This document shows, one piece after another, positions 49,238 through 55,092 of a stretch of 64,000 nucleotides of DNA. The DNA comes from Opitutus sp. (GTDB lineage: Bacteria > Verrucomicrobiota > Verrucomicrobiia > Opitutales > Opitutaceae), in contig JANPZY010000003.1 of the NCBI GenBank assembly GCA_024707325.1, forward strand, positions 17,361-81,360. The letters are read 5' to 3'. How positions within the stretch are numbered: the first letter of the stretch is position 1; each line of letters opens with the position of its first letter. The notes beneath the pieces were generated by a model. It had not been told where the DNA came from, did no database searches, and saw nothing but the letters and a program-made list of their open reading frames with translations. The translations under genes and the position numbers were made by a program.

Positions 49238-52084
49238 ATGAGCTGGCAAATCGAGTTCCGACACGGCGTGTGGCTGCCCCAAATCGGCTGGTGGCTCGAC
49301 GCACATTTTCCGGTCAAACGCTCGTTCGTCTCGCACGCGCACTTCGACCACGTCGCGGAGCACGAGGAGATCATCGCGTCCGCCGGCACCGCGCGGCTCA
49401 TGCGGGCCCGTCTGCCCGCGCGCCGCACGGAACACGTCCTGCCTTTTGGCCACACCGAGGCGCTCACAACCAACTGCGCGATCACGCTGCATCCAGCGGG
49501 GCACATCTACGGCTCCGCCCAGGCCCTGCTCGAACACGAGCTCCACGGTTCGCTGCTCTACACGGGCGACTTCAAACTGCGCCCCGGCCTCTCCGCCGAA
49601 CCATGCGCCACGCCGCACGCCGACACGCTCATTATGGAGACGACGTTTGGCCGACCGCACTACGTTTTCCCGCCAACCGCCGAAGTGCTCCGTGCAATCG
49701 CGCATTTTTGTGCGGAAACGATTTCCAACGGCGAGACGCCGGTCCTCTTCGGCTACAGCCTCGGCAAGAGTCAGGAACTCCTCAGCGGTCTCGCCGACGC
49801 GCGTCTGCCCGTGATGCTGCATCCACAAACCTGCCGGCTCACCCGCATCTACGAGGAGATGGGACTCACGTTTCCAGACTACCGCGAGTTTTCCGCCGAT
49901 GAACTCGCGGGGCACGTCGTCATCTGCCCACCGCAGGCGCGCGATTCGTCGTTTCTCCGCAAGATCCCGCAGCGTCGCACCGCGATGATCACCGGTTGGG
50001 CGATGGATCCGGGCGCGATCTATCGCTATCAGTGCGACGCAGCCTTTCCTCTCTCCGATCACGCGGACTTTCCCGACTTGATCCGCTTCGTGGAGCGGGT
50101 CGCGCCGCAACGCGTCCTGACCCTGCACGGATTCTCGCGCGAGTTTGCGCAGACGCTGCGCGACCGCGGCATCGAGGCGTGGGCGATCAATCAGGACAAC
50201 CAACTCGAACTCGGGATTCTCAAACCCTCGATCCGCGCTCCCGGTCCGCTCGCCGCCGAGGAAGCGGCACCCGTCGACGCTCCGCTCTCACCCGATTCGT
50301 TCACGCGCTTCGTTGCCACCGCCGACGCGGTCAAAGCCACGCCCGCGAAACTCGAAAAAATCGCGCTGCTTCGCGATTATCTCGCTTCGCTTTCCGCTGA
50401 CGACGCCGCGCGCGCCGCCGTGTTTCTCACGGGGCGGCCGTTCCCGCAAAGCGATGCGCGCACGCTCACGCTCGGCTGGGCGGTGGTGAAGCGCGCCGTG
50501 CTCGAACTCGCGCCCGGCAGCGAGGCGGACTACCGCGACGCGTATCATCGGTTCGCCGACGCAGGCGACGCGACTGGCGCCGTGCTCGCGGGAAAAACCC
50601 AGCCGCGTCCGTGCGCTCTTTCCGAAATCGCGCAGTTCTTCGACGCCGTCGCCGCCGCACGCGGCCCCGCGCCGAAACTCGATCTGTTGCGCAATCGTTT
50701 CTCCGCGCTCGGTCGCAACGAGATTCGCTACCTCGTGAAAATTATCACAGGCGATCTCCGCATCGGCCTCAAAATGGGACTGCTCGAGGAAGCCATCGCC
50801 GCCGCCACCGAACGCACACTCGAAGAGATTCGCGAGGCCAACATGCTGTGCGGCGATATCGCCGCGGTCGTTCGCTCCGCGCGCGCGGGCGAACTGCACA
50901 CGATTCAGCTCCGCGTCTTCCATCCGCTCCAGTTCATGCTCGCGAGCCCGGAGCCGACGGCTGATGCGATCGTCGCGCGCTTCACCGAACTCGCCGCCCC
51001 CTCTCCACCGTGCACCTCAGCTCCTGAATCAAAGTCCGTAATACGGACTTTAGACCATTCTCCCCTCTCAAATTCAAAGTCCGTATTACGGACTTTGCCG
51101 GAAGGGGCGGTGGCGTCGCCGACCATCTGGCTCGAGGAGAAATACGACGGCGTCCGCTGCCAGCTCCACAAAGCGGGCGCTCGCGTGGAGCTCTACTCGC
51201 GCGATCTCCATCGTATCACAGAAACATTTCCCGAACTTGTCACCGCCGCGCGCGAGCTTCCGGGCGACGCGATCATCGACGGCGAATTGCTCGCGTGGCG
51301 CGATGGCCGCGCCCTGCCGTTTGCCGAGCTGCAAAAGCGCCTCGGTCGCAAAGGCGGTGATGACTTCTTTCTCGGTTCCGAGATTCCCGTGTCGCTCTCC
51401 TGCTACGACCTGCTCTGGCGCGATGGTCGCACTCTGCTCAAGGAGCCGCTCGCCACGCGTCGCGACGAACTCGTCGCGCTGCTCCACTCGTTGCCCGAAA
51501 CGCTCGCCGCACGTTTTCCGATCGCGCCGGTGCAACTCGTCCACACTGCCGACGAGATCGAAGCCGCCTTTCTCGCCGCCCGCCAGCGCGGCAACGAAGG
51601 CCTGATGGCAAAAGATCCGCAGAGCGCCTACACGCCCGGACGCCGCGGTCTCGCCTGGCTGAAACTCAAGAAAGCCTACGCCACGCTCGACGTCGTTGTG
51701 GTCGGCGCCGAATACGGCCACGGCAAGCGTCACGCCGTGCTCAGCGACTACACGTTCGCGATCCGTGACGAGGAAAACGGCAATCGCCTGCTCACGGTCG
51801 GCAAAGCCTACTCCGGGCTCACCGACGCCGAGATCGTCCAGCTCACGCAGCATTTTCTCGATCACACGCTTGAGGTGCACGGTCGTTACCGCCGCGTCGT
51901 GCCCGATACGGTGCTCGAGATCGCCTTCGACTCGATCCAGCCGAGCGATCGCCACGAGAGCGGTTTCGCCCTGCGTTTTCCGCGCATCGCGCGTATCCGT
52001 TCGGACAAGACAGCGGCGGAGATCGATACGTTGGAAACGTGTCGTCGCCTCGCCGCGCCGCCGAGCTTCGCTCCGGCCCGGTAA
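49238..52084 (+). CDS. Ligase-associated DNA damage response exonuclease (MBL fold) fused to ATP-dependent DNA ligase
   Basis: The N-terminus has the MBL motif SHAHFDHV. The ligase part has EEKYDGVRCQ (motif I), GLMAKD and WLKLKK. It is a single 948-aa ORF with no internal Met or stop at the domain junction. Confidence 0.85.
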   Translation: MSWQIEFRHGVWLPQIGWWLDAHFPVKRSFVSHAHFDHVAEHEEIIASAGTARLMRARLPARRTEHVLPFGHTEALTTNCAITLHPAGHIYGSAQALLEHELHGSLLYTGDFKLRPGLSAEPCATPHADTLIMETTFGRPHYVFPPTAEVLRAIAHFCAETISNGETPVLFGYSLGKSQELLSGLADARLPVMLHPQTCRLTRIYEEMGLTFPDYREFSADELAGHVVICPPQARDSSFLRKIPQRRTAMITGWAMDPGAIYRYQCDAAFPLSDHADFPDLIRFVERVAPQRVLTLHGFSREFAQTLRDRGIEAWAINQDNQLELGILKPSIRAPGPLAAEEAAPVDAPLSPDSFTRFVATADAVKATPAKLEKIALLRDYLASLSADDAARAAVFLTGRPFPQSDARTLTLGWAVVKRAVLELAPGSEADYRDAYHRFADAGDATGAVLAGKTQPRPCALSEIAQFFDAVAAARGPAPKLDLLRNRFSALGRNEIRYLVKIITGDLRIGLKMGLLEEAIAAATERTLEEIREANMLCGDIAAVVRSARAGELHTIQLRVFHPLQFMLASPEPTADAIVARFTELAAPSPPCTSAPESKSVIRTLDHSPLSNSKSVLRTLPEGAVASPTIWLEEKYDGVRCQLHKAGARVELYSRDLHRITETFPELVTAARELPGDAIIDGELLAWRDGRALPFAELQKRLGRKGGDDFFLGSEIPVSLSCYDLLWRDGRTLLKEPLATRRDELVALLHSLPETLAARFPIAPVQLVHTADEIEAAFLAARQRGNEGLMAKDPQSAYTPGRRGLAWLKLKKAYATLDVVVVGAEYGHGKRHAVLSDYTFAIRDEENGNRLLTVGKAYSGLTDAEIVQLTQHFLDHTLEVHGRYRRVVPDTVLEIAFDSIQPSDRHESGFALRFPRIARIRSDKTAAEIDTLETCRRLAAPPSFAPAR
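50997..51100. repeat. Low-GC twin-palindrome element inside the ligase ORF
   Basis: AAAGTCCGTA-A-TACGGACTTT (51031-51051) and AAAGTCCGTA-T-TACGGACTTT (51076-51096) lie 45 nt apart. Each is preceded by CCCCTCTC...AAT(T)C. Confidence 0.8.
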
Positions 52085-52096
52085 AGCTCCCTGAAA

Positions 52097-54652
52097 ATGC
52101 TCCGTCCCGTCTCGAGCGCCGCCGCCTCCGAAACCGATCTCTTCGCCGCGCTCACGCCCGACCTCGCCGCGTGGTTTCGCCGACGTTTCGGTCACTTCGC
52201 GCCCGCGCAGCTTCAGGCGATTCCCGAAATTCTCTCGGGCCGCTCCGTCCTCGTTTCCTCGCCGACCGGCAGCGGCAAAACGCTCGCCGCGTTTCTCGGC
52301 ATTTTCGATCACCTCGCGCGCCTGAAAAACGCCGACGAGCTCCCGCCCGGCATCGTCGCGGTTTACGTTTCCCCACTGCGCGCGCTGGCCTACGATCTGC
52401 AGAAAAATCTCCAGCAACCGCTCGCCGAACTCGGTTGGGACTGGATTTGTGTTGGCGTGCGCTCGGGTGACACGACCCAGGCCGAACGCGCCAAACAGCG
52501 TCGCAAGCCGCCCCACCTGCTCGTCACCACACCCGAAAGTCTGACGCTCCTGCTCAGCCAGCCGGGCTGGCTCTCCGCCTTTCGCGATACGCGATTTCTG
52601 ATCGCCGACGAACTTCACGCGCTCGCGGAGAACAAACGCGGCTCGATGCTCATGATCGCCGCCGAGCGACTCGAGGAAATCGCCCGCACTCCCCTCGTCC
52701 GCATCGGCCTTTCAGCGACGGTGTCACCGCTCTCCACGCTCGCGGAGTTTCTCGTCGGTCCCGGTCGCGAATGCCGGACCATCGAAATCGTCGAGCGAAA
52801 GCCGGCCCACATCGAGGTGTTCTCACCGCTCCGCGCCAACGCGTATCCACCGGCCGGTTACACCGCCACGCGCGTGTTGCGCGAGTTGGGCGACTTGCTG
52901 CTCCGCCACGAGACCACGCTCATCTTCACCAACACCCGTAGCGGCGCCGAATCGATTGGCCTGCGACTCAAGCAACTTCTGCCCAGGCTCGAATCGCAGA
53001 TCGAGGTGCACCACGCCTCGCTCGATCGCAGCGTGCGACTGGAAATCGAGGATCGTCTGAAGCGCGGTGAACTCCGCGCCGTGGTCTGCTCCACGTCGCT
53101 CGAGATGGGCATCGACATCGGTTCGATCGATCTCGTCGTGATGGTCTCCGCGCCCAAAGGCGTCGCGCGCGCGCTTCAGCGCATCGGCCGGTCCGGTCAT
53201 TCGATGGGTCGCACAAGTCACGGCGTGCTCGTCGCGAGCAACATCAACGACCTCGCCGAGTGCGCCGTCACTGCGCTCATGATGACGCGACGCGAACTCG
53301 AGCCGGTGAAGATCCCCGAGAATCCGCGTGACGTGCTCGCGCAGACGCTCGTCGGCCTCGCCGTCTTCGAAAGCGTCACGCCGGACGAAGCGCTCGCGCT
53401 GCTCCACCGCAGCTATCCGTTCCGGCATCTCGACCGTGCCACGTTTGACCGCGTGCTGCACTATCTCCACGGCGGCGGCGCCTCGCTCGAGCGCAACTAC
53501 ACCGAAACCTTTGGGAAAATCCGCATCGACGAACACGGACACCTCGCCCTCACCCGACCACGCGTCGCGCGCGATTTCTACCAGAACATCGGCACGATCA
53601 ACACCGAGAGCATGGTGCGCGTGATCTTGAAGCGACGCGCCATCGGCCAGGTGGAGGAGAACTTCATGAAGAGTCTCCGGACCGGCGACGTTTTCGTGCT
53701 CAACGGCCGCTGCGTGCGACTCGTCAAAAGCCATCTCCTCACCGCCCACGTCGCACCCGCGGACAACCAACTCCCCACCGTGCCGCGCTGGTATGCGAAC
53801 AAGATGCCACTTGCGTCCGGCCTCGCCGCCGAAGTCGTGCGCCTGCGGACGGAACTCGCGCGCCGGCTCACCCATCCCGCCGAGAGCGAGGACGCCGCCG
53901 TGCAGTATCTGATTTCCGAATACGATCTATCGCGCGCCAATGCCCACGCGCTCGTGCAACACTTCGCGCTGCAGGCGCAGATTTCCGTGATTCCCACCGC
54001 GGAGAAATTTCTCATCGAGGTCTTCCGCGAAGGCGATCTCGTGCACTACTTCTTCCACGCCCTGATCGGCCGCTCGGCCAACGACGCGCTGTCGCGCATC
54101 GTCGCGCAGCGCGTGCAGGAAACCAAAGGCGGCAACGCGCTCGCGACGATCGACGACTACGGTTTCCTCCTGAGCCTGCGTTCGTTTCAGGTGATGACGC
54201 GGGAGGAACTCGCGCACTTGTTTCGCCGCGAAGGAGCCGAGGACGCGCTGCGCGCCGCGCTCGCGGATGCATCGCTCGTGAAATGGCAGTTTCGCGGCGT
54301 CGCGCAGACCGGCCTCATGGTGCCGCGACGCACACACGGCGTGGAGCGCGGCGCGCGCATGCTGCAGTGGAGCGCCGAGATCATCTTCGAAGTGCTGCGC
54401 CAGCACGAACCCGACCACCCGTTGCTGGCCGAGGCCTACGCGGAGGCGACCCAGCGTTTTCTCGATCTGCCGCGCGCGCTCCAGTTTTTGGATACGGTCC
54501 CGAATCTCGCGTGGGACTTGCGCGAGCTGAAAAAAGTGAGCCCGTTCTCGTTCGGCATCTACGTGAGCAAGATCAAGGAAACCATGACCCTCGAAGACCC
54601 CGAAACGACGATCGAGCGCCTCTTCCATCAAATGTATGGCTCCCCCGCGTGA
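52097..54652 (+). CDS. lhr: Ligase-associated DEXH-box helicase (Lhr-like)
   Basis: SSPTGSGKTLAAF, DELH and the C-terminal Lhr domains. 851 aa. Confidence 0.9.
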   Translation: MLRPVSSAAASETDLFAALTPDLAAWFRRRFGHFAPAQLQAIPEILSGRSVLVSSPTGSGKTLAAFLGIFDHLARLKNADELPPGIVAVYVSPLRALAYDLQKNLQQPLAELGWDWICVGVRSGDTTQAERAKQRRKPPHLLVTTPESLTLLLSQPGWLSAFRDTRFLIADELHALAENKRGSMLMIAAERLEEIARTPLVRIGLSATVSPLSTLAEFLVGPGRECRTIEIVERKPAHIEVFSPLRANAYPPAGYTATRVLRELGDLLLRHETTLIFTNTRSGAESIGLRLKQLLPRLESQIEVHHASLDRSVRLEIEDRLKRGELRAVVCSTSLEMGIDIGSIDLVVMVSAPKGVARALQRIGRSGHSMGRTSHGVLVASNINDLAECAVTALMMTRRELEPVKIPENPRDVLAQTLVGLAVFESVTPDEALALLHRSYPFRHLDRATFDRVLHYLHGGGASLERNYTETFGKIRIDEHGHLALTRPRVARDFYQNIGTINTESMVRVILKRRAIGQVEENFMKSLRTGDVFVLNGRCVRLVKSHLLTAHVAPADNQLPTVPRWYANKMPLASGLAAEVVRLRTELARRLTHPAESEDAAVQYLISEYDLSRANAHALVQHFALQAQISVIPTAEKFLIEVFREGDLVHYFFHALIGRSANDALSRIVAQRVQETKGGNALATIDDYGFLLSLRSFQVMTREELAHLFRREGAEDALRAALADASLVKWQFRGVAQTGLMVPRRTHGVERGARMLQWSAEIIFEVLRQHEPDHPLLAEAYAEATQRFLDLPRALQFLDTVPNLAWDLRELKKVSPFSFGIYVSKIKETMTLEDPETTIERLFHQMYGSPA

Positions 54653-54660
54653 ACCACAAC

Positions 54661-54677
54661 GTCAACTAATAGTTGAC
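54661..54677. other. Perfect 17-bp AT-rich palindrome
   Basis: GTCAACTA-A-TAGTTGAC, 9 nt after the lhr stop. Confidence 0.6.
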
Positions 54678-54711
54678 ATGTCCTCCGGCGCACTTTTCGG
54701 GCTCAGGGGAG

Positions 54712-55092
54712 TTGCGGCGGACGACGGGCTTGGTTGTCGCGGCAACATGGACCCAAAGGAAATGGGGGCGAACGCGGCCCGTGTTGCATTGCTCGCGCGG
54801 CACCTTGGCGCGATCCGGTCTGCACCCAAGCCGCGCCTGGGCTCGACATGGGACGCACTGGGTCCCGACATGGTGCGTGCTCTGGCGTGACGTGGAGCGA
54901 ACGTTAGCTCGACCCACGCCGCACCTTGGCTCGACCTGGTGCGCACCTTGGCTCGACGTGGTGCGCACCTTGGCTCGACTTGGGACGGACCTTGGCGCGA
55001 CTCGGGACACATCGTGTCCCGAGTCGGTGCGGACTTTGTCCCGACTCAATGCAGACATTGTCCCGACACGGGACGCCCCTGGGAGCGAGTCA
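54712..55092. repeat. 22-bp tandem repeat array, locus C (about 13 clear units from 54796, more degenerate upstream)
   Basis: Near-identical core copies at 54917-54938, 54939-54960 and 54961-54982 (GTGCGCACCTTGGCTCGACGTG). Flanking units are progressively degenerate. The last unit contains the A of the pdeM ATG. Confidence 0.85.

Follow-up and report, generated by a model that had tools for sequence, protein, structure and literature searches.

The gene for an ATP-dependent DNA ligase in a 64,000-nt stretch of Opitutus sp. DNA (GenBank assembly GCA_024707325.1, contig JANPZY010000003.1, positions 17,361 to 81,360; the whole stretch is called the window here) carries two copies of a perfect 21-nt palindrome, AAAGTCCGTA[A/T]TACGGACTTT, in open reading frame (ORF) 49238..52084. 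Judged by sequence comparison, this is a dispersed palindromic repeat found in Opitutaceae only: contigs assigned to the window's species contain at least 28 exact copies, and palindromes of the same kind bracket the genes of a family of small, predicted helix-turn-helix (HTH) proteins. The explanation we lean towards is a protein-recognised palindromic repeat, similar to repetitive extragenic palindromes (REPs), that sits as a passenger in a permissive loop of the ligase and whose likely recogniser is a dimer of the HTH protein. We could not find an earlier description of an HTH gene bracketed by dispersed palindromes, and our literature search found no paper that contains this palindrome or describes such repeats in Opitutaceae.

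The twin palindrome in the ligase linker

The features of the twin and its host gene are as follows.

51031..51051, no strand assigned: palindrome copy 1, AAAGTCCGTAATACGGACTTT, centre A, translated (S)KSVIRTL
51052..51074, + strand: A+T-richer spacer between the copies, agaccattctcccctctcaaatt, the same letters in four strains
51075..51097, no strand assigned: palindrome copy 2, cAAAGTCCGTATTACGGACTTTg, a 23-nt perfect palindrome, translated (S)KSVLRTL
50994..51003, no strand assigned: left arm of an outer inverted repeat, CCGCCCCCTC, 90% complementary, pairs in the predicted long hairpin
51101..51110, no strand assigned: right arm of that outer repeat, GAAGGGGCGG, likewise paired in the long predicted hairpin
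49238..52084, + strand: metallo-beta-lactamase-type nuclease fused to ATP-dependent DNA ligase, 948 aa (ORF, Pfam)
50984..51124, + strand: hypervariable linker, residues 583-629, 47 codons here vs 3 codons in minimal orthologues

A first-pass annotation of this DNA, made from the letters alone, had described two perfect 21-nt palindromes that differ in the central base (A vs T), lie 45 nt apart within the ORF, are each preceded by CCCCTCTC...AAT(T)C, and form a segment that is richer in A+T than its flanks and encodes the repeated peptide SKSV(I/L)RTL. All of this was borne out. The copies are spaced 45 nt start to start and are both in frame, the 21-nt core of copy 2 (AAAGTCCGTATTACGGACTTT, at 51076-51096) has T at its centre, and the two copies are exact reverse complements of one another; the motif stands ahead of each copy, the ORF translation contains both peptides, and the G+C content is 0.43 over 51020-51099 vs ∼0.68 nearby, with 0.65-0.73 on both sides. 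Two matches to the palindrome were observed in the window vs 0.00 expected (100 shuffles), and there is no third copy in these 64 kb, even allowing up to three mismatches. Folded as a single strand, the 126-nt twin region is predicted to form a single long hairpin, with copies 1 and 2 paired to each other (minimum free energy -58.7 kcal/mol, z = -8.3). A scan of the twin region for consensus promoters and terminators gave no match; an in-frame TTG lies 9 nt past the centre of copy 2 and is replaced by TTT in strain L060.

The host ORF contains the Pfam domains RMMBL, DNA_ligase_A_N (354-521), DNA_ligase_A_M (627-811) and DNA_ligase_A_C, and the palindrome copies fall between DNA_ligase_A_N and DNA_ligase_A_M. 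The nuclease-ligase fusion is shared by all 120 best homologues, every one of them from Opitutaceae; the fusion of a ligase-associated metallo-beta-lactamase nuclease to an ATP-dependent DNA ligase (900-1040 aa) appears to be general in this family. The segment LQFMLASP...EEKYDG has 75 aa here and 31 aa in 85 out of 119 Opitutaceae orthologues, in agreement with the earlier estimate of a spacer lengthened by ∼40 aa; in the other 34 orthologues (mostly the nearest relatives, all mutually different) it has 41-92 aa. Among the orthologues compared, SKSVIRTL...SKSVLRT[LF] is limited to the window protein and the 97%-identical protein P0001. The twin is absent from 118 orthologues, the nearest species (82% identity) has an unrelated 20-residue filler in its place, and no distant orthologue was found to keep the segment as conserved protein sequence.

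Structure prediction gave a similar picture: in an AlphaFold2 model built from 49 sequences, residues 591-623 (the insert) are coil with a predicted local distance difference test (pLDDT) score below 50, preceded by a helix at residues 575-586 and followed by the first strand of the adenylation domain, which starts at residue 630. Orthologue lengths and the model thus both agree with the placement, already proposed in the first-pass annotation, in a linker between the DNA-binding and adenylation domains. This linker is hypervariable and probably disordered, which would explain why the palindrome pair is tolerated there; we regard it as a permissive site.

A dispersed palindrome family and the predicted HTH genes that it brackets

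The exact 21-mer was found at 10 loci in a species-representative genome collection, nine of them in Opitutia, and at 35 loci in metagenomes. Its 17-nt core was found at 59 loci of the genome collection, ∼24 of them in Opitutia. The complete chromosome of Oleiharenicola sp. Vm1 (NZ_CP180537.1, 4.63 Mb), for example, has eight copies of the core, spread around the chromosome (between 35 and 1065 kb and between 3372 and 4451 kb, out of 4634 kb). The ∼25 core loci in Reyranella represent a single orthologous site in an IclR/TauD divergent promoter region and were treated as an independent operator: in L012, L015, L020, L039, L040 and ∼15 more (e.g. L040 2113-2129), AGTCCGTAWTACGGACT with an adjoining AAAGTCGAC half-site lies between divergent genes for an IclR-type regulator and a TauD-like dioxygenase, in ∼20 Reyranella species, and resembles a conserved operator. 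The core had no match in viral contigs, and tblastn searches with the HTH protein found no homologue in phage and plasmid collections; these searches, and those against PHROG and PADLOC families (see below), give no support to a phage or plasmid origin.

A search for copies elsewhere in the genome yielded many further ones in the same species, most of them intergenic. We assign at least 28 exact 21-mer copies to the window's species because the twin-carrying loci L263 and L246 match the window at 98.3% identity (over 10.8 kb) and 99.2% identity (over 3.9 kb), respectively, and because L242 (UOVV01) equals L260 (Ga0182793) over 6.6 kb. Out of 29 copies classified by gene calling based on the G+C content of third codon positions (GC3), 27 are intergenic and the two intragenic ones are those of the ligase twin alone; the intergenic copies lie between tandem (13), convergent (eight) or divergent (five) genes, or at a contig edge (one).

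The repeat has the consensus ccAAAGTCCGTAWTACGGACTTTgg, with a unit of 21-25 nt. Its copies are uniform: 406 kb of metagenome loci contain 50 exact 21-mers and none with one to three mismatches, and the centre is always A or T. Dyad symmetry runs past the 21-mer, with at least two extra pairs in 24 out of 69 copies (4.9 expected), and 17 of the 69 have a run of at least four T within 12 nt. Palindrome pairs are frequent, with spacings of 36-123 nt, and many copies are single; an apparent 9-nt quantisation of the spacing (45/54/63) failed once more pairs were added. Spacers of different pairs are unrelated to one another, and no larger conserved element was found round the palindrome, as the palindrome-masked flanks share only an unrelated terminator-like hairpin. 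Symmetric AGAG...CTCT variants proved to be a lineage preference in Oleiharenicola and not covariation within individual sites. We also observed mixed-class pairs, in which AATGTTCGTAWTACGAACATT lies 39-54 nt from AAAGTCCGTAWTACGGACTTT (L233 5056/5110, L236 5634/5673; also L240 and L245).

The central base changes between close relatives. At copy 2 (51086) it is T in the window and in L060, and A in L263 and L246; at a palindrome of another class, which begins at 54661 of the window (see below), the centre (54669) is A in the window and T in L060. Such A/T flips between strains that are 97-99% identical agree with an inversion of the loop through a hairpin or a template switch. Taken together, the fact that copies are perfectly identical, the symmetry that reaches into their flanks and the centres that flip give a hint of hairpin- or template-switch-based copying, or correction, of copies.

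Intragenic copies are found in other genomes as well, where they lie in inter-domain linkers of an SNF2 helicase, NadB, IspG, MutY, a bicupin, a CCG-domain oxidoreductase and an alpha/beta hydrolase. Twins are spaced 54 nt in the SNF2 helicase gene, 63 nt in the NadB gene (or a single copy is present) and 36 nt in the IspG gene. The copies are translated in two frames, as KSV[IL]RT or KVR[IN]TD, and the use of two frames argues that the constraint is on the nucleic acid and not on the peptide. Orthologous intragenic copies persist across genera: between the SNF2 genes of two genera, 20/21 positions of the second palindrome agree, and the 33-nt spacer between the copies is only ∼45% identical.

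The palindromes also flank one particular type of gene. In L249 and L264, an exact window-type 21-mer ends 1 nt before the ATG of the gene for P0174 (127 aa, an XRE/Cro-like HTH paralogue, adjoining recD2), another spans the TAA stop codon and a third lies 64 nt beyond the stop copy. L249 comes from UOVV01, with which the window-species contigs share an identical 6.6-kb stretch; no homologue of the HTH gene was found within the 64-kb window. In Oleiharenicola a 130-aa ORF is bracketed, with one copy abutting the ATG and the TAA stop lying in the centre of the other. All of the first six HTH loci were bracketed, but the arms differ (CTCCG, TTGCG, TAGCG or GGGCTAA). Among 80 further loci there are up to three HTH paralogues per genome, and ∼58 HTH genes are bracketed by inverted repeats (at most one mismatch in 16 nt). 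A strict test of 63 loci of the family found a TAWTA-centred palindrome upstream in 44, downstream in 42 and at both ends in 38, and in all of these 38 the two ends carry the same class. The palindrome centre lies 9-15 nt from the HTH start codon in 38 out of 51 loci. In an alignment of P0121-P0240 we noticed that the C-termini are encoded by the 3' palindrome in varied frames (...KSP*, ...PYYGI*, ...VRNTNI...), and that this palindrome's central TAA often serves as the stop codon.

All palindrome classes share the TAWTA centre and differ in their arms, and the arms co-vary with the recognition helix of the bracketed protein: half-site (G/C)TCCG goes with H.SR[VI]TE[FY]F, GTTCG with HRAR[IV]GE[YF]F, GTCACT with PRQR and GTCAAC with DRQTINAYF.

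The HTH family had 164 word-indexed matches (all from Opitutaceae where a taxon is named) and 368 representative clusters among 1.84 billion proteins; four very long proteins among these (P0364, P0471, P0478 and P0492, 1130-2210 aa) each contain 7-11 separate stretches that match the HTH profile. No Pfam, NCBIfam, PHROG or PADLOC family covers the protein. Pfam HTH_3 was matched weakly by five out of 47 members (best E-value 8.6e-6), and YdaS by 18 out of 47, below threshold. The AlphaFold2 model (pLDDT 77 overall, ∼90 in residues 54-122) is all-helical, with a long N-terminal helix, a linker containing an invariant RG.TLRPG..TPLW and a four-helix C-terminal HTH domain, and its top Foldseek matches are all of the XRE/Cro type (SinR, P22 c2, HipB and C-proteins). 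The protein has no HUH or Tyr motif, no invariant His or Tyr and no match to Y1_Tnp, and neither Pfam nor Foldseek shows it to be ParB-like. Speculatively, the invariant RG.TLRPG..TPLW arm may read the TAWTA centre in the minor groove, and the variable helix the variable arms.

Candidate explanations

On the explanation that we consider somewhat better than evenly balanced, the repeat is most likely a binding site for a dimer of the small (∼115-130 aa) XRE/Cro-like HTH protein, whose own gene carries the same palindrome before its ATG and over or beside its stop codon, with several paralogues per genome each bracketed by its own palindrome class. Binding of the protein to the palindrome is predicted here from bracketing and co-variation. 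Most copies are intergenic, and the minority in coding DNA would survive only in unconstrained linkers, where they are simply translated; we infer that the pair in the ligase is a passenger and not a regulator. New copies may arise by hairpin- or template-switch-driven copying. The first-pass annotation had seen the twin as a small palindromic mobile or repeat element tolerated in frame: the in-frame repeat element and the permissive site stand, whereas mobility of the repeat is unproven, as is any effect of the twin on ligase expression.

Several observations weigh against a repeat dispersed and recognised in this way. The HTH gene bracketed by the window-type 21-mer comes from UOVV01 and was not recovered from the Ga0182793 contigs themselves; in PNKG01 and DASZPP01 the HTH gene is bracketed by CTCCG palindromes and the dispersed copies are of the GTCCG type; and the co-variation between arm and recognition helix is confounded by common descent. 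The Foldseek E-values of the HTH model are 0.4-2, so that its matches are individually not significant. Eight out of 26 intergenic copies lie between convergent genes, an odd place for a regulator that binds promoters, though one in keeping with a REP-like repeat. An alignment of the twin's DNA with the nearest empty orthologue, a check for insertion boundaries and target duplications that the first-pass annotation had suggested, revealed no clean boundary and no target-site duplication, and the twin has no direct repeat on its flanks. Finally, the copy in the Mur ligase gene mpl (L011 1374, L024 1571, L044 2859) did not arise by insertion: here GTC CGT ATT ACG GAC TTT encodes the conserved peptide VRITDF, for which orthologues use other codons. 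Whether this could be a site made in situ by selection was considered and set aside, with orthologues only two to three synonymous changes away; we draw no inference from the Mpl copy because chance and ascertainment may explain the match.

We consider it unlikely that the repeat is a selfish miniature mobile element, comparable to REP doublets that form hairpins (REPINs), to MITEs (miniature inverted-repeat transposable elements) or to Rickettsia palindromic elements (RPEs), with the hairpin doublet moved by a transposase encoded elsewhere (RAYT, IS200/IS605 or another) and the HTH protein unrelated or accessory. Such an element would account for the long hairpin formed by the twin and its outer inverted repeat (with the z-score of -8.3), for the commonness of pairs at 36-123 nt and for identical copies at 28 or more sites, intergenic ones in 3'/3' regions included. 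But there is no GTAG or CGTC tag, target-site duplication or clean boundary, one pair's spacer bears no relation to another's, copies at orthologous sites are kept from genus to genus, no transposase adjoins any copy in the 64-kb window or the loci examined, and the only consistently flanked gene encodes a protein without HUH and Tyr motifs.

The ligase genes of other species contain further repeats, all of which fit permissive loops; the L090 twin and the GTAG-tagged REPs are also in keeping with a mobile element. The ligase gene of L090 has an in-frame twin of another class (GTGTAACGTAWTACGTTACAC, 1877-1944, 45 nt apart) in a different place, a second hypervariable loop in the DNA-binding domain. 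True GTAG-tagged REP hairpins, GGTAGGGACGGCTCTCCGAGCCGTCC, lie in frame in the same linker as the window's twin in L071 and L073, translated as GRDGSPSRP or DGRLGEASLP (proteins P0005, P0009, P0011, P0012 and P0017). The L073 linker has two inverted REP copies, an arrangement resembling a REPIN. The L118 linker has an in-frame hairpin, GGACGACC...GGTCGTCC; a possible decayed half-copy in the same loop (PPSVLRTA) gave too weak a signal to call. One DNA ligase loop has in this way gathered at least three unrelated repeat families across different species.

The genes next to the ligase bear on a further alternative. The ligase gene opens a ligase-lhr-pdeM cluster, in which lhr is followed by a PdeM-like gene with a Metallophos domain, and which contains another palindrome.

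52097..54652, + strand: Lhr-type DEAH helicase gene, directly downstream of the ligase gene, given as context (Pfam DEAD/Helicase_C/WHD_Lhr/DEAD_assoc on an orthologue)
54661..54677, no strand assigned: other-class TAWTA-centred palindrome, GTCAACTAATAGTTGAC, arm of at least 7 (0.03 per window in shuffles)

This palindrome begins 9 nt past the lhr stop codon, and is followed by an ATG 9 nt past its centre; it is kept in L060 and L263, and has one mismatch in the 82%-identity species (L061). The GTCAAC class, where it serves as a bracket, goes with those paralogues whose recognition helix is DRQTINAYF. The lhr-pdeM intergenic region also contains ∼12 tandem copies of a 22-nt unit (54796-55067, consensus CGCACCTTGGCTCGACCTGGTG), and a comparable GGCGCGAC-rich array is found in L061 (8470-8620).

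It is rather improbable, to our mind, that the copies in this operon are a selected regulatory operator, acting either as an HTH-dimer roadblock or through a TAWTAC centre that serves as the -10 element of a transcript that starts inside the operon or has no leader (one possibility being leaderless starts 9-12 nt after the -10-like centre). The operator would tune the 3' part of the ligase gene and lhr-pdeM, perhaps within a DNA-repair regulon. Three or four palindrome classes do recur in the ligase-lhr cluster (the window's twin and the 54661 palindrome, the L090 twin and, in L072, a third class, present as a twin ∼150 nt upstream of that species' ligase gene), and copies are also found in mutY and the SNF2 helicase gene, upstream of tag and beside recD2. 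The centre-to-ATG distance of 9-15 nt at HTH genes is repeated at a gene in L250 and at 54678, the in-frame TTG lies at a similar place after copy 2, and orthologous sites are conserved while their spacers diverge. Against an operator, the twin is missing from the nearest species and from the 118 orthologues, strain L060 has lost the TTG, the promoter and terminator scan of the twin was empty, many copies lie between convergent genes, most host genes are unrelated to repair (NadB, IspG, bicupin, hydrolases), and the apparent enrichment of repair genes rests on a handful of cases.

A role at the RNA level, in which the hairpins terminate or stabilise transcripts, or the 22-bp duplex of the twin is an RNase III site, with protein binding irrelevant, seems to us quite improbable. 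It would fit the very stable predicted fold, the dyad symmetry that runs into variable flanks, the T-runs at 17 out of 69 copies and the several copies that directly follow stop codons. Yet a structural hairpin needs no invariance at 21 positions, the would-be loop TAWTA included, and the copies are invariant; the majority have no T-run, some lie in divergent promoter regions or right before start codons, and the arms co-vary with the recognition helix of a protein. Chance low-complexity duplication in a fast-evolving loop, which does collect odd sequence in many lineages, has practically no chance of being the explanation, as it is refuted by the shuffles (no match in the window) and by dozens of identical copies elsewhere in the species and family, found in the genome and metagenome scans.

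The passenger repeat recognised by an HTH dimer is the reading that we carry forward. As a tentative extension, it may be part of a new kind of repeat-protein system in which XRE-like paralogues each maintain or spread a private class of perfect TAWTA palindromes, in dozens of identical copies over the chromosome, without a recognisable transposase. Equally tentatively, its architecture would resemble that of REPINs and their REP-associated tyrosine transposases (RAYTs), built on a non-catalytic HTH protein and with copies that reach the linkers of essential enzymes. If true, this would be a second independent case of a bacterial lineage in which families of short palindromes are kept together with a vertically inherited protein of their own: REPs and RAYTs are the known example, and here the partner would be a plain DNA-binding protein. 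It raises the question of how 21-nt sites could become numerous and remain identical with no transposase to copy them. The A/T flips of the centre between near-identical strains give access to the study of mutagenesis by hairpins or template switches. As a natural set of orthogonal protein-operator pairs, the palindrome classes may be of use together with the HTH paralogues cognate to them, and the intragenic copies show that, outside Rickettsia too, disordered linkers of proteins can take up such repeats as translated sequence.

Comparison with known systems

RPEs are palindromic repeats of about 100-150 bp that encode a conserved peptide and are found in frame in housekeeping genes of unrelated kinds, where the fold of the protein allows it, as well as in intergenic DNA (PMC10969869). 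The Opitutaceae repeat is similar in being found in frame at structurally permissive sites of genes and also in intergenic DNA, but its unit has only 21-25 nt, it is read in two frames, its flanks and spacers are unrelated, most of its copies are intergenic, a cognate HTH gene is bracketed, and the taxon is a different one (Opitutaceae). The kinship with RPEs suggested in the first-pass annotation is therefore best taken as an analogy only, given the unit length and the two frames.

REPs and REPINs are short palindromes, and the RAYT gene is flanked by its own repeat class (PMC3337134, PMC3116915); REPs are defined by a terminal tetranucleotide, GTAG or CGTC (PMC3733652). The Opitutaceae repeats resemble them in being short palindromes with tens of copies, mainly extragenic and often paired, of which a pair can fold into a long hairpin. 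There is also a resemblance in the flanked gene, which lies in conserved synteny, has up to three paralogues per genome and matches its palindrome class to the paralogue. However, the Opitutaceae consensus has no GTAG or CGTC, the palindromes are perfect, of odd length and invariably centred on TAWTA, genes tolerate copies within them, the copy number is lower, and the product of the flanked gene is a predicted all-helical HTH protein of XRE/Cro-like type and not a Y1 (HUH) transposase. With both the defining tag and the Y1 transposase absent, the repeats are not REPs and are not associated with a RAYT; no RAYT- or IS200/IS605-like transposase, which the first-pass annotation had proposed to look for, is linked to the repeat in the 64-kb window or the loci examined, and the gene that the repeat brackets is the HTH gene.

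MITEs are short non-coding repeats with inverted-repeat symmetry that sometimes form in-frame fusions (PMC10969869). The Opitutaceae repeat shares the shortness, the symmetry and some in-frame copies, but has no target-site duplication, conserved internal sequence or identifiable parent insertion sequence. The chromosome-organising parS sites and Noc-binding sites (NBS) are bound by ParB/Noc-type proteins and positioned relative to the origin. The protein associated with the Opitutaceae repeat does not look ParB-like in the Pfam and Foldseek comparisons, and the eight core copies of Oleiharenicola lie in the two chromosome stretches given above.

The XRE/Cro repressors (P22 c2, SinR, HipB and the C-proteins of restriction-modification systems) are similar in several respects: a small HTH protein (a predicted one in Opitutaceae), a dyad site of ∼2 × 10 bp at a fixed distance from the regulator's start, pairs of sites, and a recognition helix that co-varies with the half-site. 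The Opitutaceae system differs from them in the second site at the stop codon, by which the gene is bracketed, and in its dozens of identical sites, which include 3'/3' regions and coding linkers and are not concentrated in promoters. It also differs in having no graded similarity to a consensus (the 50 exact copies and none with one to three mismatches), and in the long N-terminal helix and conserved RG.TLRPG..TPLW arm of its protein.

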